Source of the DNA: Pseudonocardiaceae bacterium
Lineage (GTDB): Bacteria > Actinomycetota > Actinomycetes > Mycobacteriales > Pseudonocardiaceae
Direction of reading: 5' to 3'
DNA length: 24,000 bases
NCBI GenBank assembly: GCA_036279295.1
Contig: DASUJK010000129.1
Location: 40,165-64,164, forward strand
The stretch's first letter is position 1, and each line of letters begins with the position of its first letter. Positions 3,546-23,276 of this stretch are shown here, one piece after another. The position numbers were made by a program, and so were the translations under genes. A model generated the notes under the pieces. The model made no database searches and was not told the DNA's origin. It worked only from the letters and a program-made list of their open reading frames with translations.

Positions 3546-4775
3546 ATGCCCGCCGCACAGCAGCAGGGCCTGTTCCACCGCCTGTACACCGGCACAGGTG
3601 CCTTCGACATCGTCGGCAAGCGGAAGCGCTTCTACGTCTTCTTCGGCGCGATCGTCCTCATCTGCCTGGTGTCCATCATCGTGCGGGGCTTCAGCTTCAG
3701 CATCGAGTTCGAGGGCGGCACGCAGATCCAGCTGCCGGCCAACGGTGCTCACGGTGTGATCACCACGCAGCAGGCCACCACCGCGTACACGGACGCGCTG
3801 GGCAAGGAACCGTCGTCGGTGCAGTCGGTGGGCACCGGCCGCAACGCCAGCATTCAGATCCGGTCGGAAGCGCTGAACAACGACCAGGTCAGCAAGCTGG
3901 AAGAGACGATGTTCAACCAGCTCCAGCCGCTGGACTCGACCGGCAGGCCGAGCCAGACGGCGATCAGCGACTCGGCCGTCAGCGGTTCGTGGGGCTCGCA
4001 GATCTCCCGGCAGGCGCTGATCGGCCTGATCGTGTTCCTGATCCTTGTGTCGGTCTTCCTGAGCATCTACTTCGAGCGCTGGATGGCGCTGGCCGCGCTG
4101 ATCGCGCTGGCCAACGACCTGATCGTGACGGCGGGCGTGTATTCGATCGTCGGCTTCGAGGTCAGCCCGGCGACCGTGATCGGCCTGCTCACCATCCTCG
4201 GTTTCTCGCTGTACGACGCGGTGGTGGTGTTCGACAAGGTCCGCGAGAACACCAGAGGCATCCTGAGTCTGACCAGGCGGACGTTCGCCGAGGAGGCCAA
4301 CCTCGCGCTGAACCAGACGCTGATGCGGTCGATCAACACGTCGCTGATCGCCTTGCTGCCGGTGCTGGGCCTGTTGATCGTCGGCGTCGGCCTGCTCGGT
4401 GTCGGCACGCTGACCGACCTGGCGCTGGTCCAGCTGGTCGGCATGCTGATCGGTGCGCTGTCCTCGCTGTGCCTGGCCACTCCGCTGTTGGTGGACTTCA
4501 AGATGCGGCAGGCGCCGTACATCCAGCAGGCCAGGCGCGTTCGGCAGCGTCGGGAGACGCTGGCCGCCCGCCAGGCCACCGCTGAGGCGACCGCGGTCAA
4601 CGACGAGGTGCCCTCCGACGATGACCCCGACGGCCGGCAGGACTTCGTCAACGTGGCCAGCTCGCCGGTCAACATGACCAAGCTGGGCGGGGTGCCGGCC
4701 CGGACGCCGAAGGCGGCCCCGCGCGGTCGGCCGTCCGGCAAGGGCGGTCGTCCCTCCGGCAAGCGAAAGCGCTGA
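3546..4775 (+). CDS. secF: Protein translocase subunit SecF (with basic Pro/Gly/Arg/Lys C-terminal tail)
   Basis: Starts 1 nt after the secD stop. FSIEFEGGT motif and SecF TM bundle (LTILGFSLYDAVVVFDKVREN). Confidence 0.95.
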   Translation: MPAAQQQGLFHRLYTGTGAFDIVGKRKRFYVFFGAIVLICLVSIIVRGFSFSIEFEGGTQIQLPANGAHGVITTQQATTAYTDALGKEPSSVQSVGTGRNASIQIRSEALNNDQVSKLEETMFNQLQPLDSTGRPSQTAISDSAVSGSWGSQISRQALIGLIVFLILVSVFLSIYFERWMALAALIALANDLIVTAGVYSIVGFEVSPATVIGLLTILGFSLYDAVVVFDKVRENTRGILSLTRRTFAEEANLALNQTLMRSINTSLIALLPVLGLLIVGVGLLGVGTLTDLALVQLVGMLIGALSSLCLATPLLVDFKMRQAPYIQQARRVRQRRETLAARQATAEATAVNDEVPSDDDPDGRQDFVNVASSPVNMTKLGGVPARTPKAAPRGRPSGKGGRPSGKRKR

Positions 4776-4779
4776 CCAG

Positions 4780-5313
4780 GTGGGGGTGGCACCCGATTCC
4801 GTGACCGACGCGCTGGCGCTGATCAGGGAGATCCAGGACTTTCCCGAACCGGGCGTGCTGTTCCGCGATCTCGGCCCGGTGTTCGCCGACCGGTCGGCGT
4901 TCCGCACCATGGTGGACGCCATGGCCGGCGCGCTCGACCCGGCGGCGGACGTGCTGGTCGCCGTGGAGGCCCGGGGTTTCCTGCTCGGCGCCGCGCTCGG
5001 CTACGCCGTCGGGCTCGGTGTCGTGCCGGTGCGCAAGCCGGGCAAGTCCCCGCTGGTCGACCACCGCGTGGAGTACCAGTTGGAGTACGGCTCGGCAGGC
5101 CTCGAACTGCCGGGTGGCCTGCTGGTCGCCGGGCAGCGGGTGGTGATCGTGGACGACGTGCTCGCCACCGGTGGCACGGTTCGGGCGGCCGGTCAGCTCG
5201 TCGAGGCGGCAGGCGCTACGGTGTCCGGTGTGTCCGTGGTGATCGAACTGGCCGCATTGGCCGGCCGGGCGGCGCTGCCCGGTTACCCGGTCCACACCCT
5301 GCTCACGGTGTGA
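4780..5313 (+). CDS. apt: Adenine phosphoribosyltransferase
   Basis: LIREIQDFPEPGVLFRDL N-terminal motif and PRPP-binding loop VVIVDDVLATGGT. 177 aa, GTG start 4 nt after the secF stop. Confidence 0.9.
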   Translation: MGVAPDSVTDALALIREIQDFPEPGVLFRDLGPVFADRSAFRTMVDAMAGALDPAADVLVAVEARGFLLGAALGYAVGLGVVPVRKPGKSPLVDHRVEYQLEYGSAGLELPGGLLVAGQRVVIVDDVLATGGTVRAAGQLVEAAGATVSGVSVVIELAALAGRAALPGYPVHTLLTV

Positions 5314-5353
5314 CCTCAACCGTCTCCAGCTCATCGTCTGACGAGGAATTGTC

Positions 5354-5971
5354 ATGGCCGAACCCACGCCGTCGCCCGAGCAGTCCCTTGAGCAGCGCAC
5401 CGCGGAGCTGCAACAACAGGCCGGCGACGCGATGGCCCACCTGAAGGCCCGGATCGCGGGCGTGCGGCAGGCCCAGCAGCAGGCCATGCAGGCCAACGGC
5501 GAGGCGACATCGCGCGACGGAGTGGTCCGGGTCGTGGTGGACGGCACCGGTGTCGTGACGTCGCTGACGTTGGCACCCAGTGCGTTCGACCGCAGCACGC
5601 CCGACCGCCTGGCACAGACCATCACCGCCACCATCCAGTCCGCCGCCGCACAGGCCAGGGGGCGGACGTCGGCAGCGATGGCCGCGATCCGGGGTGACGA
5701 CAAGGGCCTGCTCAGCTCGGCGGCCAAGGGCGCCGCCGGGCTCGGTGTACCGCCACTGCCGGTGCCCGAGGTGCCCAGGACCGCCGTGGACCCGACCGGC
5801 CAGCAGGACGGCTGGGCCGTCCCGCCGCCAGCACCTGTGGAACCTCCCGCGCCCGTCGTGGAACCGATGCCGGGTCATGTCGCGTCCAACCGCTCGCGTC
5901 GCACGGATGACGTGGATGACAGTGCTGACGACGGGTCCGGCGGGTGGGTGTCGGACGAAAGGCCTTGGTGA
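5354..5971 (+). CDS. YbaB/EbfC-like protein with Pro-rich acidic C-terminal extension (first gene of toxin cassette)
   Basis: The N-terminal ~110 aa show the pattern coiled-coil (QQQA...LKARIAGVRQAQQQ), then GVVRVVVDGTGVVTSLTLAPSAF, then a helix. This is the YbaB-like fold pattern recurrently found beside ESX/WXG loci in actinobacteria. GAGGAA SD lies 6 nt upstream of the ATG. Confidence 0.65.
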   Translation: MAEPTPSPEQSLEQRTAELQQQAGDAMAHLKARIAGVRQAQQQAMQANGEATSRDGVVRVVVDGTGVVTSLTLAPSAFDRSTPDRLAQTITATIQSAAAQARGRTSAAMAAIRGDDKGLLSSAAKGAAGLGVPPLPVPEVPRTAVDPTGQQDGWAVPPPAPVEPPAPVVEPMPGHVASNRSRRTDDVDDSADDGSGGWVSDERPW

Positions 5972-5977
5972 TCGATC

Positions 5978-6742
5978 GTGGGCTTGGTCCTGCCCGGTGC
6001 CCTGACATGGGTGCTGGACATCGTGGGCATCGATTGGCCGAACATCGACGAGGACCAGTTGCGCCAGGCCGCTGACGAGCTTCGCCAGCTGGCCGACGAG
6101 CTGACCGGCAACACCGGCGACGCGAAGTCCGACATCGAGCAGATGTTGCAGAACAACACGGCGGATTCGCTGGAGCTGTTCGAAGCGCTGTGGAACAAGC
6201 TGGCCGGTTCGCATCTGCCGCAGCTCGCCGACGGCATGAAGGTGGTCGGCGCCGGCCTGGACATCGCCGCCGTCGTCGTGGTCGGCATGAAGGCCGCCGC
6301 CATCGCGCAACTGGCGATCCTGGCCGCGGAGATCATCTCCGACCAGGCCGAGGCCGCGTTCACGTTCGGTGCGTCCGAGGCGTTGATCCCGGTCCAGACC
6401 ATGGCCACCCGGGAGATCATGAAGGAAGTGATCGACCAGGCGGTCAAACAGGTTGAGCAGCAGCTGCTCTCCGCCGTCGAGGGACCGATCTTCGAGGCGC
6501 TGACCAGTGCCGGCGAGGAGCTGGCCGGCCAGCTCGTCGGTGACGCGCTGGGTACCAGCAGCGGCATCGACCTGGGCAAGGTGGCGTCGGCCGGTGGTTC
6601 CGGCTTCGAGCAGGGCGTGCAGAGCGTCACGTCCGACCCGCTGGGCGCGGTCGGCCTGACGAGCGGCTCGTCGGATGAATCGTCGGACGAGGGGTTCCAG
6701 TCCAAGACCGGCGTCCTGGTGCCCGACGAGCAGGAAGTCTGA
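5978..6742 (+). CDS. WXG100-like / CpnT-N-terminal-like helper protein with a central hydrophobic segment
   Basis: N-terminus IVGIDWPNIDEDQLRQAADELRQLADEL resembles, from memory, the W-P-x-x-D/E + coiled-coil motif of the N-terminal domain of mycobacterial CpnT-type proteins. Hydrophobic stretch GLDIAAVVVVGMKAAAIAQLAILAAEII. Acidic Ser-rich tail. Starts 6 nt after the previous gene. Confidence 0.55.
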   Translation: MGLVLPGALTWVLDIVGIDWPNIDEDQLRQAADELRQLADELTGNTGDAKSDIEQMLQNNTADSLELFEALWNKLAGSHLPQLADGMKVVGAGLDIAAVVVVGMKAAAIAQLAILAAEIISDQAEAAFTFGASEALIPVQTMATREIMKEVIDQAVKQVEQQLLSAVEGPIFEALTSAGEELAGQLVGDALGTSSGIDLGKVASAGGSGFEQGVQSVTSDPLGAVGLTSGSSDESSDEGFQSKTGVLVPDEQEV

Positions 6743-6746
6743 GGCC

Positions 6747-8060
6747 ATGAGCGGCGGGGGCTTCAACATCAACCCGGACGAACTGCACCACGGTGCCGCG
6801 CAGCTGGGCACGTTCAGCGACAGCATCACCAAGACGCTCGGCAAGCTGAAGACCACCCACCAGAACCTGTCCGCGCACGCCAGCAGTGACAAGTCCGGTG
6901 TCGGGCAGGTGGTCGTCAAGGCGGCCACCAAGTCCGAAGAGGTGATGGGGAACGTCGCCGGCGAGGGCGCCAGGGTGGTGAAGGGCGCCGAGCAGCGACT
7001 GCACGCCGGGGCGACGGCGCACTCGACCAACGAGGAGACGCGCACCAAGGCGTTCCAGGACCTCAAGCCGGGCGAGAGCGGCAAGAAGACCACGCCGTCG
7101 TCCTCCGGTGGCGGTGGCCCGTCGAAGGGCGGCGGGCCCGGTGGTTCCGGGCCGGGCAAGGGTCCTGGCAAAGGTGGCGGCGGTCCCGGCAAGGGGCCGG
7201 GCAAGGGCGGCGGCGGTGGCAAGCCGCCGAAGAAGCCCAAGGCCAGCAACGAACCGCCGGAACCCGCGCTGACCCCGGGCAAGAAGCCGCCGACCGCCAA
7301 CGACACCCCGTCCAAGGTGTTCAACAACCAGCCGAAGCTGCCCAAGCCGGAGAAGTACAAGGACGACCTGCCCAAGGTCGACTCGGCCGGCGCCGTGCCA
7401 CCGAAACCGGCCCGGGGCGCCCAGGTCGAGCAGATCGACGAGAAGCGGGTGAAGCGCGGCGGCGACGGCCTGATCAAGACGGTGGACGGCAAGCCGGTCA
7501 AGCAGTACGTCGGCGAGCTGTCCAGCGGTCGGGCGCAGGCACTCAGCGCCAACGGCCCGGACGAGAAGCCGCTGGAGTCGCGCTGCTCGGCGGTGGCCAT
7601 CGACCTGAAGACCGGCCTGGTCACCACCGGCGTCAACGGCAACGGCGGCGACGTGATCCCGCCGAAGAACCTGCACCCGCTGTTGCAGCAGAACTACCAG
7701 GACCTGCGGGCCTGGCAGCACCCCGTGCAGGGCACCACGCAGACGCTGGACGGCAAGGCGCACTACTCCACACCGGCCGGCCACGCCGAGGTCAAGGCCA
7801 CCAACGAGCTGCTGTGGGCGCGGGAGGCCCAGCTCAAGCCGGGGGAGACCCTGCCGCCGTCCACGCTGGGCGAGCTGCGGTTCGATCCGAGGTGGACGGC
7901 GCAGACCGGCGCCGACGGCGCGATCGGCGGCGCGGCGCCCGCGTGTGCCAACTGCAACTCGCTGCTGGACGGCGTGCCCAGCTACACCGGCCGCTGTACG
8001 TACACTCCGCGCGACGACCGGTATGCGAATCCATCCGTTGCCCCGTATGAGGATCAATGA
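6747..8060 (+). CDS. Polymorphic toxin: helical WXG100-like N-terminal domain + G/P/K-rich linker + C-terminal YwqJ-like nucleic-acid deaminase domain
   Basis: ATG at 6747, 4 nt after the upstream stop. The track's 6675 start overlaps the previous gene and reads as Arg/Ser junk. N-terminus FNINPDELHHGAAQLGTFSDSI... is an ~100-aa helical hairpin. The deaminase zinc/catalytic motif HAE is at 7782-7790 and PACANC (PxCxxC) at 7938-7955. Confidence 0.75.
   Translation: MSGGGFNINPDELHHGAAQLGTFSDSITKTLGKLKTTHQNLSAHASSDKSGVGQVVVKAATKSEEVMGNVAGEGARVVKGAEQRLHAGATAHSTNEETRTKAFQDLKPGESGKKTTPSSSGGGGPSKGGGPGGSGPGKGPGKGGGGPGKGPGKGGGGGKPPKKPKASNEPPEPALTPGKKPPTANDTPSKVFNNQPKLPKPEKYKDDLPKVDSAGAVPPKPARGAQVEQIDEKRVKRGGDGLIKTVDGKPVKQYVGELSSGRAQALSANGPDEKPLESRCSAVAIDLKTGLVTTGVNGNGGDVIPPKNLHPLLQQNYQDLRAWQHPVQGTTQTLDGKAHYSTPAGHAEVKATNELLWAREAQLKPGETLPPSTLGELRFDPRWTAQTGADGAIGGAAPACANCNSLLDGVPSYTGRCTYTPRDDRYANPSVAPYEDQ
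7149..7214 (+). repeat. Tandem 33-nt (11-aa GPGKGPGKGGG) duplication inside the toxin linker
   Basis: Copy 1 at 7149-7181 and copy 2 at 7182-7214 encode identical peptides. They differ at 6 third-codon (synonymous) positions. Both are embedded in a wider Gly/Pro/Lys low-complexity region, 7107-7241. Confidence 0.8.
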
Positions 8061-8434
8061 ACGAGTTGCGCGTCGACATCGAGGACACCACCCTGAGCGA
8101 GGGACAGGAGGTCCTGTACCAGGGCGTGCCGCTGACCGGTGAAGTGATCCGCACCACCGCAGGCGGCGTCGTGGTCACGGCCAAGCAGTACCGCGACGGC
8201 CTGGAGGAGGGCACGCAGCGGGAGTGGTACGGCGACGGCACCCGCCAGTCCGAGTACACGGTCGTGGACACGAACGTGACCGGCGAGACGCTGGACTGGC
8301 ACCGCAACGGCCAACTGGCCCGTCGGCAGGAGTTCGACGAGTACGGTGAGCTGCGCAAACGCGAGGTGTGGGACGAGGACGGCGTGCCGCAGCCGGACGA
8401 GGCCGTGGACGACCGGGCTGACGACGCCGAGTAA
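8057..8434 (+). CDS. Putative immunity protein, MORN-variant/YwqK-like repeats with acidic tail
   Basis: The ATG overlaps the toxin stop (ATGA at 8057-8060). Repeated G-x-x-x-x-W/Y-x-x-x-G motifs ([51 protein letters not shown]) match the MORN-variant repeats of YwqK-family antitoxins. 125 aa. Confidence 0.7.
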
Positions 8435-8565
8435 CCCTCTGTAGTCGACCGACGCCGGCCGACCAGCGCACTCACCCGACCGGCTGGCGAGCGAAACGGG
8501 CCGGTGGGCGGCGTGCCGCGTGGCCACACGACGCCCGAGCTACCATTCGATATCGGGTCGCGTCC

Positions 8566-10938
8566 GTGATCCGATCACTGGGCGCCGCCGTCGGGAGACG
8601 GGTGGCGCCAGGGGTGTCGGGAGCGTGGGTGAGCCAGGACGTCGAATCTGCGGCCGCTGCCGGAGCTGAGCAGTTGGCCGCCGCGCGGCCGCCGTCGGCC
8701 ACCCGCAGGGTGCGCGCCCGGTTGGCGAGGCGCATCACGGCCCAGCGGCCGTCCTCGGTCAAGCAGGTGCTCGAACCGCTCGCCGCCGTCCACCGTGACC
8801 TGCACCCCAACGCCGATCTCGGCCTGTTGCAGCGTGCCTACGACGTGGCCGAGGAGAAGCACCGCGAGCAGCGGCGCAAGTCGGGCGATCCGTACATCAC
8901 ACACCCGCTCGCCGTCGCGACCATCCTGGCCGAACTGGGCATGGACACCACGACCCTGGTCGCCGCCCTGCTGCATGACACCGTCGAGGACACCGACTAC
9001 TCACTGGAGCGCCTGCGGGCCGACTTCGGCGAGGTCGTCGAGCACCTGGTGGACGGCGTCACCAAGCTGGACAAGGTCAAACTCGGCTCGGCGGCCGAGG
9101 CCGAGACCATCCGCAAGATGGTCATCGCGATGGCCCGTGACCCGCGCGTACTGGTCATCAAGCTGGCCGACCGGCTGCACAACATGCGCACGATGCGGTT
9201 CCTGCCGCCGGAGAAGCAGGCCCGCAAGGCCCGCGAGACACTGGAAGTACTGGCCCCGCTGGCACACCGGCTCGGCATGGCGACGGTGAAGTGGGAACTG
9301 GAGGATCTCGCGTTCGCGATCCTGCAACCCAAGAAGTACGACGAGATCGTCCGGCTGGTGGCCAACCGGGCGCCGTCGCGGGACACCTACCTGCGCACGG
9401 TCAAGGAGGAACTGGCCGGACACCTCGCCGAGGCCAGGCTGGAGGCCGAGGTCCAGGGCAGGCCCAAGCACTACTACTCGATCCACCAGAAGATGATCGT
9501 CCGCGGCCGGGACTTCGACGACATCCACGACCTCGTCGGCGTGCGGATCATGGTGGACGACGTCCGCGACTGCTACGCCGCAATGGGCGTCGTGCACGCG
9601 ATCTGGCAGCCGATGCCCGGCCGGTTCAAGGACTACATCGCGCAGCCCCGGTTCGGCGTCTACAAGTCCTTGCACACCACCGTGATCGGGCCGGACGGCA
9701 AGCCGCTCGAAGTGCAGATCCGGACCAGGGACATGCACCACACGGCCGAGTACGGCATCGCGGCGCACTGGCGGTACAAGGAAACCAAGGGTTCGCACAA
9801 CGGCAAGTCCGTCGAGATCGACGAGATGGCCTGGATGCGGCAACTCCTGGACTGGCAGCGGGAAGCGGCCGACCCGGGCGAGTTCCTCGAATCGCTGCGC
9901 TACGACCTGGCCACCCGCGAGATCTTCGTGTTCACGCCCAAGGGCGACGTGGAGACGCTGCCGGCCGGCTCGACACCGGTGGACTTCGCGTACTCGGTGC
10001 ACACCGAGATCGGCCACAAGTGCATCGGCGCCCGGGTCAACGGCAGGCTCGTCGCGCTGGAACGCAAGCTGGAGAACGGTGAAGTAGTCGAGATCTTCAC
10101 CTCGAAGGCCGACGGCGCCGGGCCGAGCCGCGACTGGCTGTCGTTCGTCGCGTCACCGCGTGCCAAGACGAAGATCAAGCAGTGGTTCGCGAAGGAGCGC
10201 CGCGAGGAGGCCATCGAGGCCGGCAAGGACACCATCAGCAAGGAGGTCCGCAGGGTCGGACTGCCCCTGCAACGGCTGGTGTCCGCCGATTCGATGTCCG
10301 CGCTGTCCCGGGAACTGCGCTACCCGGACGTGACAGCGCTGTACGCGGCCATCGGCGAAGGCCAACTGTCCGGCCGGCACGTCGTGCAGCGTCTCGTCGC
10401 CCTGCTCGGTGGCGTCGAGCACGCCGAGGACGAGCTGGCCGAGCGCTCCACACCGTCCACAGTGACCAGACGCCGCGGTTCCGGCGACGCCGGCGTGGTG
10501 GTGGTCGGCGCGTCGGACGTGTGGGTCAAACTGGCGCGCTGCTGCACCCCGGTACCCGGCGACGAGATCCTCGGCTTCGTCACCCGTGGCGGCGGGGTCA
10601 GCGTGCACCGCAAGGACTGCACCAACGCCGGCGACCTGTACGACTCGCCGGAACGGCTGGTCGAGGTGTCCTGGGCCCCGTCGGCGTCGTCGGTGTTCCT
10701 GGTCGCCATCCAGGTCGAGGCGCTGGACCGGCACCGCCTGCTGTCCGACGTGACCAAGGTGCTTGCCGATGAGAAGGTCAACATCCTGTCCGCGTCGGTG
10801 GCCACGTCCCGGGACCGGGTCGCGGTCAGCCGCTTCTCCTTCGAAATGGGCGACCCGACGCACCTGGGCCACGTGCTCAAGGCCGTGCGCAGCGTGGAAG
10901 GCGTCTACGACGTGTACCGGATGACGTCAGCCAACTAG
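8566..10938 (+). CDS. relA: Bifunctional (p)ppGpp synthetase/hydrolase RelA/SpoT (Rel)
   Basis: Near-colinear with mycobacterial Rel as I recall it. HD domain ([13 protein letters not shown]...LLHDTVEDT), synthetase domain ([12 protein letters not shown]...DLVGVRIM), TGS ([10 protein letters not shown]), CCTPVPGD zinc-finger region and C-terminal ACT. The exact start is uncertain (GTG 8566 or a later GTG). Confidence 0.95.
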
Positions 10939-11274
10939 CTTCAGGATTTCGTCCAGCGCGGCCTGACCATCGGGTGCTCGTTTCGGCAGCCGGTCAACGA
11001 GATCGGCCAGGTGGACCCCGTCGACCTCGCTGACGATCGAGGCGATCTCCGCGAACGTAGTCCGTGGCCTGGCGCCGAGCTGTACGTAGGAGCTGATGTC
11101 GCCGCCCATCTGGTACGTGACAACAGCGGCGGCGAGAAAATGTGCCCATATCTGCCCTATGTCGCCAGCCGCTCCCCGCAAATGGTTGGCCAGGTTGTGA
11201 TGGCTGAGGGCTACCTGCTGCGGATCGAACGCCACGTACGCCAGCCGCAGCGCGTCTGCCTCCAGGAAAAAGCT
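10927..11274 (-). pseudogene. Out-of-frame C-terminal continuation of the CHAT-STAND-TPR protein (open frame downstream of the A5/T5 frameshift site)
   Basis: The minus-strand frame opens after a TAG at 11275-11277. It reads SFFLEADALRLAYVAFDPQQVALSHHNLANHLRG..., a TPR-like, protein-like sequence. The annotated frame of the large ORF instead ends in Arg/Trp-rich SWRQTRCGWRTWRSIRSR*. Confidence 0.6.
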
Positions 11275-14200
11275 CTATCCTGATGCGACAGCGTGCGCTC
11301 AATGTTGGCCTGTGCGGACAAGGTCTTGCTGAGTAGGTCGATTTTGTTGTTCTGTTCGAAAACGGATCGACACCATCGCAGCAGCTCAATGGCCTCGTCC
11401 ATTCGATCCAGGCGGCACAGTGCTTCGCAGTCGTTGAAGAGAGTTGTCGCCTGTTCGACCGCGGAAGCGCCGCGGGCGCGTTGGGACGCGTTGTGTTCCG
11501 CGTTGATCTCCAGGGCCAGCTCCCATAGGCCCAGTTCTCCAGCGGAAATGGAACCGAGATTGAGGATGGGCTCGCGACTAATCCACGCGGAACCAGTTTC
11601 GTCTACGCCTTGGATATCCAGCAGTGTCGCCATCGCGATGCGGTGCTGTTCGACCGAATCCAGCACTTCTTGATGACGGCCTTGGTGCCAGAGGATCTGA
11701 AGACGTTGAGCATCGTCCCCGATCCGGGTCCACGGCCCGAGGCCAGCCCGGGCGCTGTATTCAATCTTGTCGTCCGCGAGTTGGAGGGCTTCGTCGAGGC
11801 GGCCGGCCCGACGAAGCAGGTTGATCAGGCTGGGTGCGATGATCGAAGCGGCGCGAAAATCACCCTGCGCCACAGCGAGATCCAGTAACTCACGGAATCG
11901 AGTTGTCGCATGGTCCGGGTGCAGTACAGCTAGCGCCTGAGCATGGACGCGTCCGGCCATCAGTGCGTGCTCGGTGCTGATGGTGGCATCCATGGCACTT
12001 GCAAGTAGTGGCAGAAGTGCCGATGCGGTGATTGCCGAGGCGTCATATTGGACTAGCGCGTCGGCAGCGACACTGAATTCCAACCAGCGGTGTTGGTGGA
12101 ACAGATACGGAGCCGATGATCGGGCCGAATGAAGGATCATAGGTCCAAGTTGGTCGGTCTGTTCCCGTTGCAGCGCGGCGTGAAGTACCGCCAGCCATAG
12201 GTCGCCGAGCACGGTGTCCACCGCATTGGCGAACTCGGAACGCGCGCGGTCGCGTACTGTTTCGGCGATGCCTGGATGGACGCGATAGGTACTGGCCGCT
12301 ACCAAGGCCGCGTCGAGCAATGGTGGCATCGACTTGGCCGGATCTGGTGGATCGCCCGGACGTCCTAACCGCTCCCACACCGCAGTCCAGGCGCCCTCGG
12401 CGATCCTGGCGTTGCGGTCGCTCTCCTCCAGGCAGCACAGGAACTGGAAGAACACGGCGGCGTCCGATGGCAAGCCGGCCACCGTGGCTAGGGTCCAGGT
12501 CCGCAGGACAGCCAGGTAGTTCGCATCGGTCGCCTCGGACTCGCCGTCCAGGAACGGTGCCAGCCGGGTGCCTCCGCGCTGCCACGTCTCGTCCGCCTCG
12601 GCCAACCGGGTCGCGAGCCGCTCGGGATCAGCGGCATGGCCGTCGGCCAGCTCGATCAGCTTGGGGTGGCCTTGGACCACGGTGATCGTGCGCCTGGCCA
12701 GTTCAGGGTCGCTGTCGATGAGCGCCCTGAGGTGCGGCAACTCCCGAGCGAGCAACACAGCTTCCCGCAGCGACAGAGCGTGCACCGGCTCGACCAGCAC
12801 CGAATCGGGCAGTCCAACCGGCCGACGACGCGAGGTCAGCACCAGCCGGGACAGGCCATGATGCGCCGTCATCGCGTCGATCAGCAGCGCCCACCGCTCG
12901 TCCCGCCACTCGCCGCCGTCCGTGAGCAGCGACTCGACGTTGTCCAGGACGACCAGTACTCGCTCCTGCTCCAACACCTCGGTGAACGACGGCAGCCACG
13001 CCCGCCACGCGTCGATGTCGCCGACGAGGTGCGCGAGCTTGAGCCCCGGCAGTTGCCGCTCCAACGCGAACGCGAAGTCCGACAGGGCCGTCGTGATGTC
13101 GTGGCCTTCAGGCGGTGCCGCATGCCAGGCCATCGCCGGGAACGACTCCTGGTGCGTGTACGCCAGTTCCAGCGCACACGCGGTCTTGCCGGCTCCCGCC
13201 ATGCCGTGCAACAGGATGCCGCTGCGGCCGCTGTGCGGGGCCAACGCTGTGGTCGCCCGCGTCATCGGCTCGACCCGGCCGACGAATCGCTCCGGCTGCG
13301 CGGGAAAGTCGGCCAGCTTCTGCCGTTCCGCGTCGAACACCAGCGGCGCACCCGGCGGTGGCACCAGTTTCAGGTCGCCCGCACGCGGCCCGAACAACGT
13401 TGGCGTCGCCACGGACATCGCAGGTGCGGCAGCCGTCGGCGGCTGCACGGCGGCCTGGGGCAACGACAACGCCAAGGCACGCGCGACCGACTGCCCTTTG
13501 CCCAGTACCAAGCCGTAGAACGATTCCGCCAACGCGATTGCGAAGTCGTCGACCACCGGATAGCGCATCGCCAGGACCGCGCAGTCCAATGTGCCGGCCA
13601 CCTCGGTCGCGATGGCAGGCAGTGCTCCGCTGTCAGCGTCGGTGTCGACATCGCGCACGGCCGGTGCCAGCCCGAGCAGGTGCAGCTGCTCACCGGCCGC
13701 CACCGCCGCCGACTCGCACGCGGACAACGTGACCAGCTTGATCTGGTCGGCAGCCAGGTCGAGCAGATCAACGAGATCGGTGCTGCTGATCAGGTCCAGC
13801 CGGCCAGTGTCGTCCTCCAGCACCAGCCCTGCCGGCAGGCCGTGGCCGGACAGGTGCACCACGTCCCAGCCGGCGTCCTCCAACAACGCTTCACGCAGCC
13901 GTTCCCTGGTCGCGCCGTACTGGAGCACGCGCAGCTCGATGGGCTTGTTGTTGACAGCGGCGATCTCGTGGACGAGCCGGGCCAGCGCGAACCGCTCCTT
14001 GCGCAGGTTCAGCGCTCCCGCGTCCTCGGGCAGGCTGAACACGGCCAGCATCCGCAGCCGTTCGCCGACATCGGACTTGGCGAGCGGGCGGTGTGGCTGC
14101 TGGTCGATGATGAAGCCGACGCGGTGCCCGGCCAGCGTGCGCCCGTCCACCCGGGCCAACTCCCACGGCAGACAAGCCAGCACACCGGCTTCGGCGGGCA

Positions 14201-14510
14201 CCTCGATCCGCACCGGCCGCCGATGGCGCGCCAACACCGCCGCCAGGCCGCCGAAGACGCGCTCGGTGATCCACTCGCCGAGCTGGTCGACCAGCTCGGC
14301 CTCGTGGCGCAGCCGCCGGTCGGGTGCCGCGTTGTGCCGCAGATAACCGTGCAGGTCATGGAACGCGGTGTACTGCCATTCCTGGCCGCGCAGGTCGACG
14401 ACGTGGTCACCCAGGAACGTGCCGGCGTCGGTCAGCCGCCATCGCCACTTCGTCGGACCGGCGTGGTCGAGCACCTCAAGGCGCAGTTCCACGTCACTGT
14501 GTCGCGACAT
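11211..14510 (-). CDS. NLR-like STAND protein: N-terminal CHAT (caspase-like) protease + NB-ARC/AAA P-loop NTPase + C-terminal helical/TPR sensor (apparently frameshifted near 3' end)
   Basis: CHAT dyad context VVHLSGHG (13839-13856) and LVTLSACESA (Cys codon 13716-13718). Walker A GMAGAGKT (13182-13205). Walker B VLVVLDNVE (12933-12959). Long alpha-helical repeat C-terminus. Confidence 0.8.
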   Translation of the reverse strand: MSRHSDVELRLEVLDHAGPTKWRWRLTDAGTFLGDHVVDLRGQEWQYTAFHDLHGYLRHNAAPDRRLRHEAELVDQLGEWITERVFGGLAAVLARHRRPVRIEVPAEAGVLACLPWELARVDGRTLAGHRVGFIIDQQPHRPLAKSDVGERLRMLAVFSLPEDAGALNLRKERFALARLVHEIAAVNNKPIELRVLQYGATRERLREALLEDAGWDVVHLSGHGLPAGLVLEDDTGRLDLISSTDLVDLLDLAADQIKLVTLSACESAAVAAGEQLHLLGLAPAVRDVDTDADSGALPAIATEVAGTLDCAVLAMRYPVVDDFAIALAESFYGLVLGKGQSVARALALSLPQAAVQPPTAAAPAMSVATPTLFGPRAGDLKLVPPPGAPLVFDAERQKLADFPAQPERFVGRVEPMTRATTALAPHSGRSGILLHGMAGAGKTACALELAYTHQESFPAMAWHAAPPEGHDITTALSDFAFALERQLPGLKLAHLVGDIDAWRAWLPSFTEVLEQERVLVVLDNVESLLTDGGEWRDERWALLIDAMTAHHGLSRLVLTSRRRPVGLPDSVLVEPVHALSLREAVLLARELPHLRALIDSDPELARRTITVVQGHPKLIELADGHAADPERLATRLAEADETWQRGGTRLAPFLDGESEATDANYLAVLRTWTLATVAGLPSDAAVFFQFLCCLEESDRNARIAEGAWTAVWERLGRPGDPPDPAKSMPPLLDAALVAASTYRVHPGIAETVRDRARSEFANAVDTVLGDLWLAVLHAALQREQTDQLGPMILHSARSSAPYLFHQHRWLEFSVAADALVQYDASAITASALLPLLASAMDATISTEHALMAGRVHAQALAVLHPDHATTRFRELLDLAVAQGDFRAASIIAPSLINLLRRAGRLDEALQLADDKIEYSARAGLGPWTRIGDDAQRLQILWHQGRHQEVLDSVEQHRIAMATLLDIQGVDETGSAWISREPILNLGSISAGELGLWELALEINAEHNASQRARGASAVEQATTLFNDCEALCRLDRMDEAIELLRWCRSVFEQNNKIDLLSKTLSAQANIERTLSHQDRAFSWRQTRCGWRTWRSIRSR

Positions 14511-14511
14511 G

Positions 14512-15804
14512 TCAGCACCGTATTACCGGACCGGTCACCCCGCGATAGGTCACCCCACCGTCCGACGAGAGCTGGACGATCGGGATCGCCCTGTCGAGCG
14601 GGTTGCCCGCCTTGTCGAAGCACAGGTAGCCGCTCGCGCCGTGCACCGGCCGCTCGGGACTGATCGCGGTCAGCACCTCGTCGTGCGACACGATGGCCTG
14701 ATCGTCGTCGAGTGCGGTGGCGGGCTCGGCCGGGAACATGTGGCTGAACCCGTGTGGTGCCTTGGTGAACCACGCCGTGGTGGCCGGGTCGGCCAGTGCC
14801 GGACCGCGCCACATGCCGGGGCTGGCCAGCGCCGTGAAGTACACGGTCATGTTCGCCGACGCCGACCACAGGTCGGGTTGGCCGGCGATCTGTGCCGCGT
14901 CACTGCTGGTCAACACCGTCAACGGCTGGGTCCTGGCACACGATCGGTGGCCCAGTTCCGTGAGAGTGCGGCGCAGATCCGGGCCGGTGCCGGCGAAGTA
15001 GAGGACGTTCACGTGCGCCCGGCACACGCCGTCGCCACCGCCCGCGGCACTGGCCGTCAACACCGTTGCCGCCGCCGGCACGCCGGAGTCGTACTCCGAG
15101 CCCGGGCCGACGATCTGGTAGCGGTTCCGCACTGCGGGCGCATACGCGTCGCCCAACGCGATCGCGTGCGCGTCCGCCGGATTCTCGTCCTGCATCAGCC
15201 ACATCCGTGGCCGAGCGGGCAACCGATCGGGACGGGTGTCCAGGAAGCGGATCGCGGCCGACACCTCGTCCGGATACGTCGGAGTCACTCGGACCAGCCC
15301 ATGGATCCCGGCCAGGTCACCGGTGCCGACCATCGCGATGTGCCGGCCTGCCAAGGCATGGGCCAGGTCGGCATCCCCACTGCCCAGGCCGATCACCGCC
15401 ATCGGGTGCTGTCCGTGGAGCGCGGTCACTGCCGGCTGCCACGCCCGGTCGTCGGCCAGCACGAGGCGGACCAGCGGTGAGCCGGTGGTGCTGTCGGTCG
15501 GATGATTGGCCTCGTACTGCGCCAGATATGCGCCCTCAACGGCATGCCTGGTGTCCGCCGAGCCATTCGGCACCACCAGCACCACGATGGTCACAAAGTG
15601 CTTTCCGGTGCCGGCCACCCATTTGTTCTGTTGGTGGATCAGATTCTCCACCTGCCGTAGGTTCGCGTTGAACACATGTCCGCCGTCGGTCACGTACACC
15701 GGGGCAGGCGGAATCGGTCGTAGTGCGTAGGCAACGCCCCCAGCGGCTGCCAACACGATGACAAAAAGTGGAACGATCAGTCTTCGGCGTCGCCACCAGG
15801 GCAT
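14512..15804 (-). CDS. Membrane-anchored/secreted type-I periplasmic-binding-protein-like (LivK/Peripla_BP_6-like) protein, no cognate ABC permease nearby
   Basis: ATG at 15804 preceded by GGGGGAGG with a 7-nt spacing. N-terminus MPWWRRRRLIVPLFVIVLAAAGGVAYAL (signal/anchor). Body pattern AVEGAYLAQYEAN...LVRLVLADD...AVIGLGSGD...VRVTPTYPDE typical of type-I PBPs. The TGA stop is 1 nt from the ATG of the CHAT-STAND gene. Confidence 0.65.
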   Translation of the reverse strand: MPWWRRRRLIVPLFVIVLAAAGGVAYALRPIPPAPVYVTDGGHVFNANLRQVENLIHQQNKWVAGTGKHFVTIVVLVVPNGSADTRHAVEGAYLAQYEANHPTDSTTGSPLVRLVLADDRAWQPAVTALHGQHPMAVIGLGSGDADLAHALAGRHIAMVGTGDLAGIHGLVRVTPTYPDEVSAAIRFLDTRPDRLPARPRMWLMQDENPADAHAIALGDAYAPAVRNRYQIVGPGSEYDSGVPAAATVLTASAAGGGDGVCRAHVNVLYFAGTGPDLRRTLTELGHRSCARTQPLTVLTSSDAAQIAGQPDLWSASANMTVYFTALASPGMWRGPALADPATTAWFTKAPHGFSHMFPAEPATALDDDQAIVSHDEVLTAISPERPVHGASGYLCFDKAGNPLDRAIPIVQLSSDGGVTYRGVTGPVIRC

Positions 15805-15840
15805 ACGTCGGCCTCCCCCTCGCGCACCGCAACCAGTCCC

Positions 15841-15867
15841 ACGCATTTCGACCCCCGCGAAATGCGT
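15841..15867. promoter_or_regulatory. Perfect 10-bp inverted repeat ACGCATTTCG-N7-CGAAATGCGT upstream of the PBP-like/CHAT-STAND operon
   Basis: Read directly from the sequence. Lies 37-63 nt upstream of the 15804 start and 116 nt downstream of the cyclophilin stop. It could be an operator or the terminator of the upstream gene. Confidence 0.35.
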
Positions 15868-21218: not shown

Positions 21219-23276
21219 GTGCGATGGGACGGACAGCGGGTTCAGGGGGACGGGCAGGCGCAGGGCGCCTTGCCCGGGATCAGTGGGCTGGTGCGCAGCG
21301 TGCGTACGCCCGAGTTCAACGGCCTCGTGTTCCACGAGGTGATGGCCCGATCGGTGCTGAACAAGGTGCCGGGCGCGTCGTCCATGCCGTTCGGCTGGAC
21401 GGTGAACCCGTACCGCGGCTGTTCACACGGTTGTACGTATTGCCTGGCCGGGGACACCCCGGTGCTGATGGCCGACGGCCGCACCAAGCCGATCGCCGAT
21501 CTCGTCGTCGGCGACCGGATCTACGGCACGCGGCTGACCGGCCGATATCGCCGCTACGAGGCGACGACGGTGCTGGCGCACTGGGCCACGGACAAGCCCG
21601 CCTATCGGATCAAACTGGTCGACGGCACCGAGTTGGTGACCAGTGCCGACCACCGGTTCCTGACCGAGCGGGGCTGGAAACACGTCACCGGCACCACGAC
21701 CGGTGCGGCCCGGCGCCCCCACCTGACCACCGGCAACAAGCTGATGGGCACCGGTTCGTTCGGTGCGCAACCGGTGGTGGACGCGGACTATCGGCGCGGC
21801 TACCTGTGTGGGCTGGTGCCGGGTGGCGGTGGTGCCGGCTACCGCGACCGGGTGGCCAGGTTCCGGCTGGCCGCCGCACCGGACGGCGTGGCCGATCGGG
21901 CGGCACGGTTCCTCGCCGAATTCGGTGTGGACGCCGAACACGCCGGTGTGGTGCCCGGGTTGCTGGCGTGGCCGAGCGAGCCGAACGACCACTGGCACAA
22001 GGGTTTCCTGGCCGGAGTGTTCGACGCGCGGGGCGGCCGGTCCAGTCGGGTGCTGCGGATTCGCAATGCTGATCCCGAGGTGGTGCGGGCAGTGCTCGTC
22101 GGGTTCACCAGGTTCGGTTTCGCGCACACCGTGGAGGAGGCGGCCAAGGGCGTCGGGCCGCAGGTGGTCCGGCTCAACGGTGGACTGACCGAACACCTGC
22201 GGTTCTTCCATACGGTGGACCCGGCCGACACGAGCAAACGCACCATCGACGGGCTGGCCATCAAGTCGGGCGCGGCGCTGGGTGTGGTGTCGATCGAGGC
22301 ACTGAACAAGACGATGCCGATGTACGACATCACCACCGGCACAGGTGACTTCGTCGCCAATGGTGTGGTGTCGCACAACTGTTTCGCCAGAAATTCGCAT
22401 ACGTACCTGGATCTGGACTCGGGGCACGACTTCGACACCCAGGTCGTGGTGAAGGTCAACGCGGTCGAGGTGCTGACGGCCCAGTTACGGGCCAAGAAGT
22501 GGCAGCGAGAGCACGTCGCGATGGGTACGAACACCGATCCGTACCAACGGGCCGAGGGCCGGTACGAGTTGATGCCGGGCATCATCGGCGCGCTGGCCCG
22601 GTCCGGCACGCCGATGTCGATCCTGACCAAGGGCACGGTGCTGTCCAGGGACATCCAGTTGCTGGCCGCCGCGGCCAAGGACGTGCCGGTCGGGCTGGGC
22701 GTGTCGATCGCGTTGGTCGACCGGGACATCCAGCGTGATCTCGAACCAGGCACGCCCAGCCCGCAGGCCAGGTTGGAACTGGTCCGGCGGGTGCGCGAGG
22801 CAGGGCTGCCGTGTGGCGTGTTCGTGGCACCGGTGTTGCCGATGCTGACCGACTCGGCGGACCGGTTGGACCGGCTGTTCGCCGCGATCGCCGATGCTGG
22901 CGCGACGGGCGTGACGGTGTTGCCGCTGCACCTGAGGCCGGGCGCGCGGGAGTGGTTCGCCGCGTGGTTACGCAGGGAGCATCCGGAATTGGTGGAGTCG
23001 TACCGGCAGATCTACGGGAAGGGGAGTTACGCGGATCGTGGTTACCGGAAGCTGTTGGCAGCCCGGGTCGGTCCACTGTTACGCAGGCACGGCCTGAGCA
23101 CGGGCACCGACCGGTCCACGACGGACACGGCCACCGATGGCGCCGATGGCACTGGGCCGGTGGGCGGCGGCGCGGGGGAGTCGGACCCGGACCGCGCGGT
23201 GTGGCCTGCGGGCAGCCTGCCAGCCGGAGCACCACGGTCAGCCACGGTGGACCAGGGCCAACTCAGCCTTCTGTGA
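21219..23276 (+). CDS. SplB-like (COG1533, Rv2578c-family) radical SAM protein, intein-containing precursor
   Basis: Exteins read RSVRTPEFNGLVFHEV...PYRGCSHGCTY|CFARNSHTYLDLD...GTNTDPYQRAEGRYELMPGII...SILTKG, typical of the Rv2578c-type radical SAM family. 685-aa precursor, about 372 aa after splicing. Confidence 0.9.
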   Translation: MRWDGQRVQGDGQAQGALPGISGLVRSVRTPEFNGLVFHEVMARSVLNKVPGASSMPFGWTVNPYRGCSHGCTYCLAGDTPVLMADGRTKPIADLVVGDRIYGTRLTGRYRRYEATTVLAHWATDKPAYRIKLVDGTELVTSADHRFLTERGWKHVTGTTTGAARRPHLTTGNKLMGTGSFGAQPVVDADYRRGYLCGLVPGGGGAGYRDRVARFRLAAAPDGVADRAARFLAEFGVDAEHAGVVPGLLAWPSEPNDHWHKGFLAGVFDARGGRSSRVLRIRNADPEVVRAVLVGFTRFGFAHTVEEAAKGVGPQVVRLNGGLTEHLRFFHTVDPADTSKRTIDGLAIKSGAALGVVSIEALNKTMPMYDITTGTGDFVANGVVSHNCFARNSHTYLDLDSGHDFDTQVVVKVNAVEVLTAQLRAKKWQREHVAMGTNTDPYQRAEGRYELMPGIIGALARSGTPMSILTKGTVLSRDIQLLAAAAKDVPVGLGVSIALVDRDIQRDLEPGTPSPQARLELVRRVREAGLPCGVFVAPVLPMLTDSADRLDRLFAAIADAGATGVTVLPLHLRPGAREWFAAWLRREHPELVESYRQIYGKGSYADRGYRKLLAARVGPLLRRHGLSTGTDRSTTDTATDGADGTGPVGGGAGESDPDRAVWPAGSLPAGAPRSATVDQGQLSLL
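21441..22379 (+). mobile_element. Class-1 intein (313 aa) with degenerate LAGLIDADG homing-endonuclease insert
   Basis: Block A CLAGDTPVLMADG. Block B ELVTSADHRFLT. Blocks F/G MYDITTGTGDFVANGVVSHN followed by +1 Cys. LAGLIDADG-like motifs GYLCGLVPGGGG (21798-21833) and KGFLAGVFDARGG (21999-22037). Confidence 0.88.

Follow-up and report, generated by a model that had tools for sequence, protein, structure and literature searches.

The stretch of DNA analysed here, hereafter the window, spans 24,000 nucleotides (nt) of contig DASUJK010000129.1 (assembly GCA_036279295.1, positions 40,165 to 64,164 of the forward strand) from a Pseudonocardiaceae bacterium, a soil actinomycete. It holds the gene block ruvB-yajC-secD-secF-apt-...-relA-...-cyclophilin-...-hisS, which is conserved in actinobacteria. 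Between apt and relA lie four forward-strand open reading frames (ORFs), at 5354-5971, 5978-6742, 6747-8060 and 8057-8434, whose products we term P1 to P4 and read as a predicted toxin-immunity cassette. The coordinates and spacings given in a preliminary description of this DNA were confirmed by the ORF listing: 6 nt separate P1 and P2 (5972-5977), 4 nt separate P2 and P3 (6743-6746), and the stop codon of P3 overlaps the start codon of P4 in an ATGA. The features of the locus are listed below; L001 and L002 are two related loci introduced in the next paragraph.

4780-5313, forward strand: apt, adenine phosphoribosyltransferase, the upstream host gene (Pfam Pribosyltran, E-value 6e-12)
5314-5353, forward strand: left junction, the 40-nt spacer between apt and P1, which holds the P1 Shine-Dalgarno sequence GAGGAA
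5354-5971, forward strand: P1, a YbaB-fold protein of 205 residues (Pfam YbaB_DNA_bd)
5978-6742, forward strand: P2, a WXG100_2 (CpnT-N-terminal-like) helical protein of 254 residues with a GTG start
6747-7076, forward strand: putative N-terminal trafficking domain of P3 (residues 1-110), a WXG100-like hairpin modelled as two long helices
7077-7391, forward strand: P3 linker (about residues 111-215), Gly/Pro/Lys-rich and predicted to be disordered
7392-8060, forward strand: predicted C-terminal YwqJ-family deaminase domain of P3 (about residues 216-437; Pfam PF14431)
8057-8434, forward strand: P4, a YwqK-like MORN_2-repeat protein of 125 residues
8435-8628, forward strand: right junction, placed by the alignment of the window with L001 and L002
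8566/8629-10938, forward strand: relA, (p)ppGpp synthetase/hydrolase, the downstream host gene (Pfam HD_4, RelA_SpoT, TGS and ACT)

An Apt-based scan with one genome per species yielded 80 loci, most of them from distant phyla, and five informative Pseudonocardiaceae loci: L001 (the sister metagenome-assembled genome (MAG) SMAG_U4832), L002 (a Pseudonocardiaceae MAG), L003 (Umezawaea), and L004 and L005 (Actinokineospora). The apt-relA interval was compared among them by tblastn and by direct reading of the sequences. In L002-L005, apt is directly followed by relA at a distance of about 60-300 bp and the cassette is absent; these four relatives support the earlier statement that the two genes are usually adjacent. 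L001, whose Apt and RelA are 92% and 97% identical to those of the window, also has the four genes at this site, and their products are 75-84% identical to P1-P4. The corresponding values for L002 are 78% and 94%, and RelA identity across all five loci ranges from 87% to 97%. The insertion had been described as strain-specific. Its absence from the site in L002-L005 agrees with that part of the claim, but because the sister MAG L001 carries all four genes at the same place, the cassette is, on this comparison, lineage-specific (at least two species-level genomes) and not strain-specific. The proposed presence/absence comparison, run on these five relatives, revealed a polymorphic element (present in L001, absent in L002-L005) and not a universal core. 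The insertion starts right after the apt stop codon, with the cassette beginning 40 nt downstream, and ends about 35-70 nt past the P4 stop codon. From about 8470 onwards, homology to the apt-relA spacer of L002 sets in; it covers a post-apt hairpin-like segment and the block CCCGAGCTACCATTCGATATCGGGTCG. At the borders we found neither flanking direct or inverted repeats beyond chance nor an integrase, transposase or other mobility gene.

P3 is a protein of 437 residues read from the ATG at 6747; its frame is open from 6675, and all 20 homologues start at the motif MSGxGFNI. Residues 282-408 match the Pfam YwqJ-deaminase family PF14431 (E-value 1.2e-6, 29.2 bits against a cut-off of 25.9), and P3 homologues reach 1e-9 against the same profile. 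In a 21-sequence alignment of the family, H346-A347-E348, C400-x-x-C403, H310 and H325 are invariant. These catalytic motifs fit the published description of the YwqJ clade, with [CH]xE in helix 2 and CxxC in helix 3 (Iyer et al. 2011, PMC3239186); the G of the clade-table pattern Gx[CH]xE is not conserved in the P3 family, where P343 is invariant instead. The AlphaFold2 (AF2) model of this domain has predicted local distance difference test (pLDDT) values mostly above 85 and displays the order alpha1-beta1-beta2-alpha2(HAE)-beta3-alpha3(CxxC), as expected for a deaminase. The NCBI record with 100% identity to P3 is annotated as 'MAG TPA: YwqJ-related putative deaminase [Pseudonocardiaceae bacterium]'. 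A Foldseek search of the PDB with the P3 model returned matches to the hairpin only and none to the deaminase domain. Sequence and profile searches of the PDB with that domain gave nothing significant, apart from a weak match to the YenC2 C-terminus (E-value 0.26), and P3 showed no sequence or structure match to SsdA or DddA in the PDB. From its sequence, the payload of P3 is predicted to be a YwqJ-type deaminase, and by analogy its substrate is most likely cytosine in single-stranded DNA (ssDNA).

The N-terminal leader of P3, about 105 residues long, is modelled as two helices (residues 10-45 and 52-104) at low confidence (pLDDT 50-60). The top 17 Foldseek matches of this hairpin are all EsxA/EsxB-type WXG100 proteins, with TM scores by target of 0.68-0.85. 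The model displays the helix-turn-helix hairpin of about 100 residues that characterizes the WXG100 superfamily. Near its end the leader has an almost invariant H92-x-x-x-E96, similar to the HxxxD/E pattern known from this superfamily. The linker that follows has pLDDT values below 50 at residues 107-169, is rich in indels in the homologue alignment and contains a 33-nt tandem repeat at 7154-7220. A Sec-type hydrophobic N-terminus is absent from P3, as it is from P4. None of P1-P3 matches an LXG or Lap family in Pfam or NCBIfam; the cassette works like an LXG/Lap system but is no member of it.

An exhaustive HMMER search revealed that residues 1-108 of P3 head 55 clusters (50% identity), always at the N-terminus, in proteins of 63-1574 residues. 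The C-termini of 52 of these 55 leader-bearing clusters were scanned against Pfam, and at least 10 toxin families plus RHS were found behind a P3-type leader. A YwqJ deaminase occurs in 9 of the 52 clusters and a TNT NADase in four; GH-E HNH nuclease, Diphtheria_C (the diphtheria-toxin C domain) and ADPrib_exo_Tox occur in two each; the ADP-ribosyltransferases Tox-ART-HYD1, Scabin-like, ART and Pertussis_S1, as well as SsdA_C, occur in one each. The matches to DUF6531 (10 clusters), RHS_repeat (9) and the RHS core (6) largely overlap, as they come from the same large RHS-type proteins. Four Kutzneria/Saccharothrix toxins were compared by BLAST with the first 110 or so residues of P3. Three of them, L087_g3, L089_g3 and L089_g8, share 31-36% identity with P3 at their N-termini, the leader of the TNT toxin in L089 reaching 36%; the N-terminus of the fourth, L088_g3, is weakly similar (25%, E-value 5e-4). 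One leader serving many payloads, each with its own small downstream gene, is the signature of polymorphic toxins (Zhang, Iyer and Aravind; Zhang et al. 2012). The P3 family displays a shared leader with variable C-termini, an adjacent downstream gene that depends on the payload, and presence/absence polymorphism. The polymorphic-toxin logic put forward in the preliminary description (helical leader, linker, variable toxin, downstream immunity gene) is borne out at the sequence level by the 55 leader clusters, their diverse payloads and the adjacent YwqK-like gene.

The downstream protein P4 belongs to a family in which 12 of 13 members match MORN_2 (best E-value 4e-11). Homologues 64-88% identical to it are named by JGI 'antitoxin component YwqK of YwqJK toxin-antitoxin module'. 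The AF2 model of P4 is an all-beta hairpin array with a weak likeness to the MORN region of SET7/9. Furthermore, a MORN_2/YwqK-like gene lies directly 3' of every YwqJ-type toxin examined. P4 is predicted from sequence to be a cytoplasmic immunity protein, translationally coupled to P3 via the ATGA overlap. In Kutzneria viridogrisea (L081:9308-10866), three tandem YwqK-like paralogues lie 3' of the toxin, the third being the C-terminal part of a 278-residue protein. This toxin has no YbaB/WXG100_2 pair upstream, so that the locus represents an immunity expansion beside a helper-less toxin.

A second reading differs in the target. A toxin secreted against eukaryotes (fungi, amoebae or nematodes), or one that diffuses and does not depend on contact-dependent delivery by a type VII secretion system (T7SS), would suit the diphtheria-, pertussis- and scabin-like ADP-ribosyltransferases that share the leader and often hit eukaryotes. 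The protein that P2 resembles most closely in architecture, CpnT, has a host-targeting NADase as its cargo, and YwqJ-clade deaminases are also found in insecticidal Tc toxins, in line with the weak YenC2 match. Like the predicted toxin, CpnT comes with an immunity factor in the cytoplasm (IFT). Against such a target, the only characterised YwqJ acts between bacteria, and the T7SS toxins of Actinomycetota for which immunity partners have so far been demonstrated act on bacteria. Moreover, the presence/absence polymorphism, the tightly linked immunity gene and the expansion of YwqK-like paralogues (three in L081) are typical of kin-level bacterial competition. We consider a eukaryotic target or a diffusible toxin unlikely and favour a bacterial competitor as the predicted target.

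Upstream of the toxin, P2 matches Pfam WXG100_2 (PF25547) above the cut-off (E-value 4e-15), and some of its homologues match PF06013 as well. More than 142 homologues at 55-87% identity occur in Kutzneria, Saccharothrix and Amycolatopsis, far more than P3 has, and UniRef labels them 'Outer membrane channel protein CpnT-like N-terminal domain-containing'. P2 consists of a highly conserved core (residues 1-215) and a variable acidic Ser/Gly tail. The core is the most conserved element of the cassette (96% identical to L001 and 63-75% to other loci); according to domain-wise identities, it changes more slowly than the leader, the linker, the toxin domain and the immunity protein. Its invariant residues include W20-P21, D24-E25-D26, W72, H79, K105, Q111 and E118, the last three of which lie within a highly conserved hydrophobic helix (residues 86-120, window 6233-6337), GMKVVGAGLDIAAVVVVGMKAAAIAQLAILAAEII. 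The Kyte-Doolittle hydropathy of P2 over 19 residues peaks at 2.15, above the usual threshold. We do not claim a classical membrane anchor, as the helix holds K105, Q111 and E118 inside a conserved helical domain; it could be either the core of a helical bundle or a membrane-active element. P2 is predicted to be the partner of the N-terminal hairpin of P3.

P1 matches Pfam YbaB_DNA_bd above the cut-off (residues 35-113, E-value 2e-13, 50.6 bits), with Rv3716c as a weak PDB match. Its C-terminal tail comprises an extra 90 residues, Pro-rich and acidic, the last residue being W. Against the NCBIfam YbaB equivalog TIGR00103, P1 scores 22 bits and does not reach the cut-off of 49. The housekeeping YbaB of 115 residues, encoded beside recR, is a separate gene in the Kutzneria locus L089. 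We tried the housekeeping YbaB/EbfC nucleoid protein as an assignment for P1 and rejected it, given the missed equivalog cut-off and the extra 90-residue tail. Since there is also a separate recR-linked YbaB in L089, P1 is, as judged from sequence, a YbaB paralogue and not the nucleoid protein. By analogy, it is better likened to the ESX-1 chaperones EspD/EspH/EspL than to a nucleoid protein, and is predicted to be a dedicated chaperone. Taken together, the earlier calls of a YbaB-like protein, a WXG/CpnT-NTD-like helper, a modular toxin and an immunity-like protein hold at the profile level, with P4 itself below the MORN_2 cut-off.

The two helpers recur as a pair. P1 homologues lie 5' of WXG100_2 genes in L083, L085, L087 and L094, and in each of these loci the order is YbaB, WXG100_2, toxin, immunity. 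In the Pseudonocardiaceae MAGs L083 and L085, the complete order YbaB/WXG100_2/YwqJ-deaminase/MORN_2 is located at another chromosomal site, between RibD_C and GH16 genes. L088 has the same order as well; its first gene has no Pfam match and is P1-like by BLAST only (47% identity). L089 has no annotated YbaB-like gene directly 5' of the WXG100_2 gene. The loci with other payloads are arranged as follows.

L087, K. albida: P2 homologue, toxin without Pfam match, then a UCP033725 gene; the locus adjoins EspG, PPE and DUF3558 genes
L088, Saccharothrix: P2 homologue, toxin without Pfam match, then UCP033725 genes
L089, Kutzneria sp. 744: P2 homologue directly followed by a leader-TNT NADase fusion
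L094, metagenome: YbaB/WXG100_2 pair before an RHS toxin of 1425 residues

The EspG, PPE and DUF3558 genes beside the K. albida cassette are indirect evidence of a link to type VII secretion. Genes of the UCP033725 type are found 3' of the other, non-YwqJ payloads (L087-L089). In most helper loci the stop codon of the P2-type gene and the start codon of the toxin gene overlap, and this translational coupling fits a stoichiometric complex. At L089:5001-10063, a WXG100_2 gene is followed by the leader-TNT toxin, small ORFs, a UCP033725 gene and a second leader toxin of 401 residues with its own UCP033725 gene, an arrangement reminiscent of the tandem toxin and immunity genes that characterize polymorphic toxin loci. 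A C-terminal domain common to L087_g3, L088_g3, L088_g5 and L089_g8 corresponds to no Pfam family. In Saccharopolyspora (L091:890-1776) and Lentzea (L092:960-1833), a YbaB-like gene is paired with a small WXG100 (109 residues) or EspC-like (101 residues) gene, 3-4 kb 5' of YwqJ-like toxins with different, non-hairpin N-termini.

The Shine-Dalgarno sequence of P1 lies 5 nt 5' of the ATG, and the shorter apt-P1 spacer of L001 (about 28 nt) has the same 3' end, GAGGAATTGTCATG, as the window. A promoter and terminator scan of 4700-8700 found no site. An ECF/SigM-like motif seen by eye 5' of P1 was dropped, as its spacing is wrong and it is not conserved in L001. The 40-nt gap between apt and P1, together with the lack of a detected promoter or terminator, suggests that the cassette is co-transcribed with apt by read-through. 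At the other end, the longest relA ORF starts at a GTG at 8566. Since conservation across L001-L005 begins at GTGAGCCAGGAC (8629), the true relA start is probably the GTG at 8629. The block CCCGAGCTACCATTCGATATCGGGTCG (about 8534-8560), 5' of relA, is conserved in the window, L001 and L002, and may contain the relA promoter. Rfam and tRNA scans of the window were empty.

These features would also suit a decaying or orphan remnant, acquired once and now neither exported nor expressed, that hitch-hikes between two essential genes. No promoter or terminator of its own was detected, canonical T7SS motifs are absent, the 24-kb window encodes no secretion system, and helper-less orphan toxins occur elsewhere (L081, L093). 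The substitution pattern argues otherwise. Between the window and L001, dN/dS is 0.23 for P1, 0.15 for P2, 0.27 for P3 and 0.29 for P4, at dS values of 0.29-0.63, somewhat above the 0.22-0.28 of the flanks; all four genes are under purifying selection. The four frames are intact in two diverged genomes, the catalytic residues are invariant, and gene spacing and the Shine-Dalgarno sequence are kept. G+C content at third codon positions (GC3) is 0.85-0.92 in P1-P4 compared with 0.86-0.94 in the flanks, with overall G+C content likewise similar, so that the composition fits the host. A remnant is accordingly highly improbable in our view.

The cassette quite probably represents a polymorphic toxin with its immunity protein, a module belonging to type VII secretion (ESX-type, T7SSa), with a YwqJ-like deaminase as its toxin and P4 as the neutralising partner. 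For this module, we infer the export route, the P1/P2/P3 complex, the substrate, the toxicity, the immunity and the co-transcription with apt as parts of the following putative model. Initially, a single transcript, which probably arises by read-through from apt, would serve the translation of all four genes. P1, as a YbaB-fold dimer, would act as a dedicated cytoplasmic chaperone, in the way EspD/EspH/EspL do for ESX-1 substrate pairs. P2 and the hairpin of about 105 residues in P3 would pair to yield a helical-bundle export signal, to be recognised by an EccC-type ATPase whose gene would lie outside the window. The flexible Gly/Pro/Lys linker would tether the C-terminal YwqJ-family zinc deaminase. 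Inside a competitor, the deaminase would act on nucleic-acid bases, most likely converting ssDNA cytosine into a uracil load, with mutagenesis and growth arrest as the outcome. In the producer and its kin, P4 would bind and block P3.

Several observations weigh against this model. The 24-kb window contains none of the T7SS core genes (eccB-E, mycP). No WxG motif and no YxxxD/E export motif was found in the P3 leader, P1 and P2 lack tyrosine altogether, and P2 lacks the canonical WXG turn, having W72-N-K at the turn position. A profile-profile comparison of P2 with the P3 leader gave a probability of 35% over 37 columns. The leader hairpin is a low-confidence model, and its Foldseek E-values are weak (0.06-1), helical hairpins being easily matched. 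P3 exceeds the PF14431 cut-off by 3 bits; P4 scores 22.4 bits against MORN_2 (E-value 1e-4), under the cut-off of 29.6, and its model is mediocre (pLDDT 62). The failure to detect a promoter or terminator counts here as well. Finally, the proposed substrate is carried over from a homologue that is very distant and has been characterised in one preprint.

The lack of any secretion-machine gene in the window would also fit a purely intracellular toxin-antitoxin or abortive-infection module, for instance one for phage defence by DNA deamination, with P1 and P2 as regulators or passengers and nothing secreted. COG and JGI naming presents YwqK as the 'antitoxin of the YwqJK toxin-antitoxin module', YbaB proteins classically bind DNA, and the conflict-type insertion on the far side of relA described below hints at a local defence-gene hotspot. 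However, PADLOC defence models gave no match for P1-P4, and about 215 residues of leader and linker would be useless to an intracellular pair. The leader is common to RHS-encapsulated, TNT, diphtheria-like and pertussis-like ADP-ribosyltransferase toxins, which are typically exported. P2 falls within the CpnT-N-terminus/WXG100 family, and antagonism by the prototype YwqJ requires T7SSb. On balance, an intracellular module appears quite unlikely, and we retain the type VII toxin-immunity module as the favoured reading.

A more far-reaching form of this reading is possible, though we hold it only tentatively: the YbaB-fold protein and the WXG100_2 protein of about 250 residues would constitute a distinct type VII targeting and translocation module, a 'split CpnT', which exports an arsenal of payloads behind one leader. 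The invariant hydrophobic helix of P2 (residues 86-120) might then serve membrane insertion or target-cell entry and not mere signal formation. If this holds, such a module would let the monoderm Pseudonocardiaceae export deaminases, NADases, ADP-ribosyltransferases, nucleases and RHS cages via a leader of about 105 residues.

A second lineage-specific insertion lies on the far side of relA, at 10927-15846 on the reverse strand, and comprises a 102-residue ORF, a protein of 1099 residues and a 444-residue ORF without a Pfam match. The large protein combines a CHAT protease with a STAND NTPase (AAA_16/NB-ARC) and a long C-terminal region, and has a weak match to PADLOC SAVED_CHAT (1e-6). The insertion is present in L001 with 52-70% amino-acid identity, the CHAT gene having a dS of 0.84 compared with 0.22-0.28 in the flanks, and is absent from L002, where the cyclophilin gene lies directly 3' of relA. 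Its GC3 of 0.74-0.82, compared with about 0.9 in the flanks, points to foreign or more recently acquired DNA. The three ORFs are a possible defence or conflict system. The conserved secDF-apt-relA-ppiase block would thus have taken up two conflict-system insertions, one on either side of relA. Further downstream, at 21219-23276 on the forward strand, a radical S-adenosylmethionine (SAM) protein of 685 residues shows a weak Intein_splicing (Hint-like) match at residues 83-153, below the Pfam cut-off; it is 80% identical in L002.

Among known systems, the ywqH-ywqI-ywqJ-ywqK(-ywqL) locus of B. subtilis is similar to the cassette in payload and order: a PF14431 toxin with HxE/CxxC and a YwqK/MORN_2 immunity protein, arranged as two helpers, toxin and immunity gene. 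B. subtilis YwqJ has been reported as an ssDNA cytidine deaminase (C-to-U) whose antagonism needs T7SSb and the catalytic Glu and which is neutralised by YwqK (preprint, 2026, PMC13648612). This 2026 preprint is the first biochemical characterisation of the YwqJ clade, to which the payload of P3 is assigned; divergent clade members are of interest for base editing. The window differs in that no LXG or PT-TG was detected, the leader being a hairpin of about 105 residues versus an LXG of about 200. In place of two small helical hairpins, a YbaB-fold protein and a WXG100_2 protein of 254 residues are the predicted helpers, and in an actinomycete host the machine would be T7SSa, not T7SSb. In addition, an endonuclease V (EndoV) gene follows the immunity gene at the ywqL position of B. 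subtilis and in Kutzneria and Saccharopolyspora relatives; the window holds none, either 3' of the immunity gene or elsewhere. B. subtilis EndoV (ywqL) has been reported to repair the uracil lesions of the toxin, in a survey that covered B. subtilis only (PMC13648612). We observed an EndoV gene directly after a YwqJ-like toxin and its MORN_2 gene(s) at L081:10916-11584, L090:8459-9064 and L091:7662-8333, the genes of Kutzneria viridogrisea and K. kofuensis occupying the same site and that of Saccharopolyspora rhizosphaerae being convergently oriented. If the linkage of EndoV to YwqJ/YwqK in actinomycetes and Bacillus is genuine, it would generalise 'repair as second immunity layer' across phyla.

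P2 belongs to a Pfam/UniRef family defined on the N-terminal domain of CpnT, which in M. tuberculosis is encoded in esxF-esxE-cpnT-ift and delivers TNT in an ESX-4-dependent manner. The immunity protein is cytoplasmic in that system, as predicted for P4, and the Kutzneria cassette of L089, with a P2 homologue followed by leader-TNT, recalls CpnT. In CpnT, however, the N-terminal domain and the toxin form one polypeptide, whereas they are split into P2 and P3 in the window. The small partners of CpnT are the WXG100 pair EsxE/EsxF and not a YbaB-fold protein, and its payload is an NADase and not a deaminase. To our knowledge, Pseudonocardiaceae have no mycolate outer membrane, and the outer-membrane channel role of CpnT is therefore not transferable.

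The M. abscessus locus tapA1-tapA2-eatA-eatI encodes an ESX-4 toxin, and T7SS toxins with upstream helpers and diverse payloads are widespread in Actinomycetota (PMC13444075). Like the cassette, it has a toxin with a helical N-terminal domain, upstream accessory gene(s) and a downstream immunity gene. One or two upstream accessory proteins form a complex with the N-terminal domain of EatA, and composite export signals arise by pairing in WXG100 pairs, PE/PPE, LXG/Lap and EatA/Tap (PMC13444075). The likeness is one of description: with 8.6 and 12.7 kDa, both Tap proteins are small, and EatA carries an LXG-like leader of about 180 residues. The payload of EatA is an arabinanase acting in the periplasm and countered by a lipoprotein inhibitor, in contrast to the predicted deaminase of the window. 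It was with M. abscessus that actinobacterial type VII interbacterial toxins were first demonstrated experimentally, in 2026.

For P1, the nearest parallels are espA-espC-espD and espE-espF-espH (also EspL), in which a YbaB-fold protein accompanies a helical pair, one long and one of about 100 residues, as in the window. The YbaB-like EspH binds EspE and is needed for the stability of EspE/EspF, and EspD/EspH/EspL have been proposed as substrate-specific chaperones (PMC6107294). YbaB/EspL-like genes are also found in ESX-4/SigM substrate operons of M. abscessus (PMC13491425). Unlike the cassette, the ESX-1 Esp substrates have neither an enzymatic toxin domain nor an immunity gene, and P2 has no Pfam match to the EspA/EspE family. 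SsdA (ssDNA) and DddA (double-stranded DNA) resemble the predicted P3 as zinc-dependent interbacterial toxins of the deaminase fold with cognate immunity proteins; they belong to other deaminase clades and are effectors of the type VI secretion system of Gram-negative bacteria.

The general logic of the cassette is already well established from the YwqJ/YwqK families and the polymorphic toxins of T7SS, and NCBI already annotates the toxin. A table published in 2011 already lists actinobacterial YwqJ-clade deaminases with WXG-type leaders at the N-terminus (PMC3239186). In the full-text literature on YbaB, type VII secretion and toxins, we found no description of the YbaB plus WXG100_2 helper architecture. 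What sets the cassette apart from LXG/Lap, Eat/Tap and CpnT/EsxEF is the helper set, a YbaB-fold protein with a WXG100_2 protein of about 250 residues that carries a conserved hydrophobic helix, together with a very short leader; the arrangement amounts to a CpnT N-terminus detached from its toxin. The locus is a compact case of this recurrent Pseudonocardiaceae architecture (YbaB-like protein, WXG100_2 protein, short-leader toxin and immunity protein), which would give a defined, testable set of helpers and a leader for mining new payloads.

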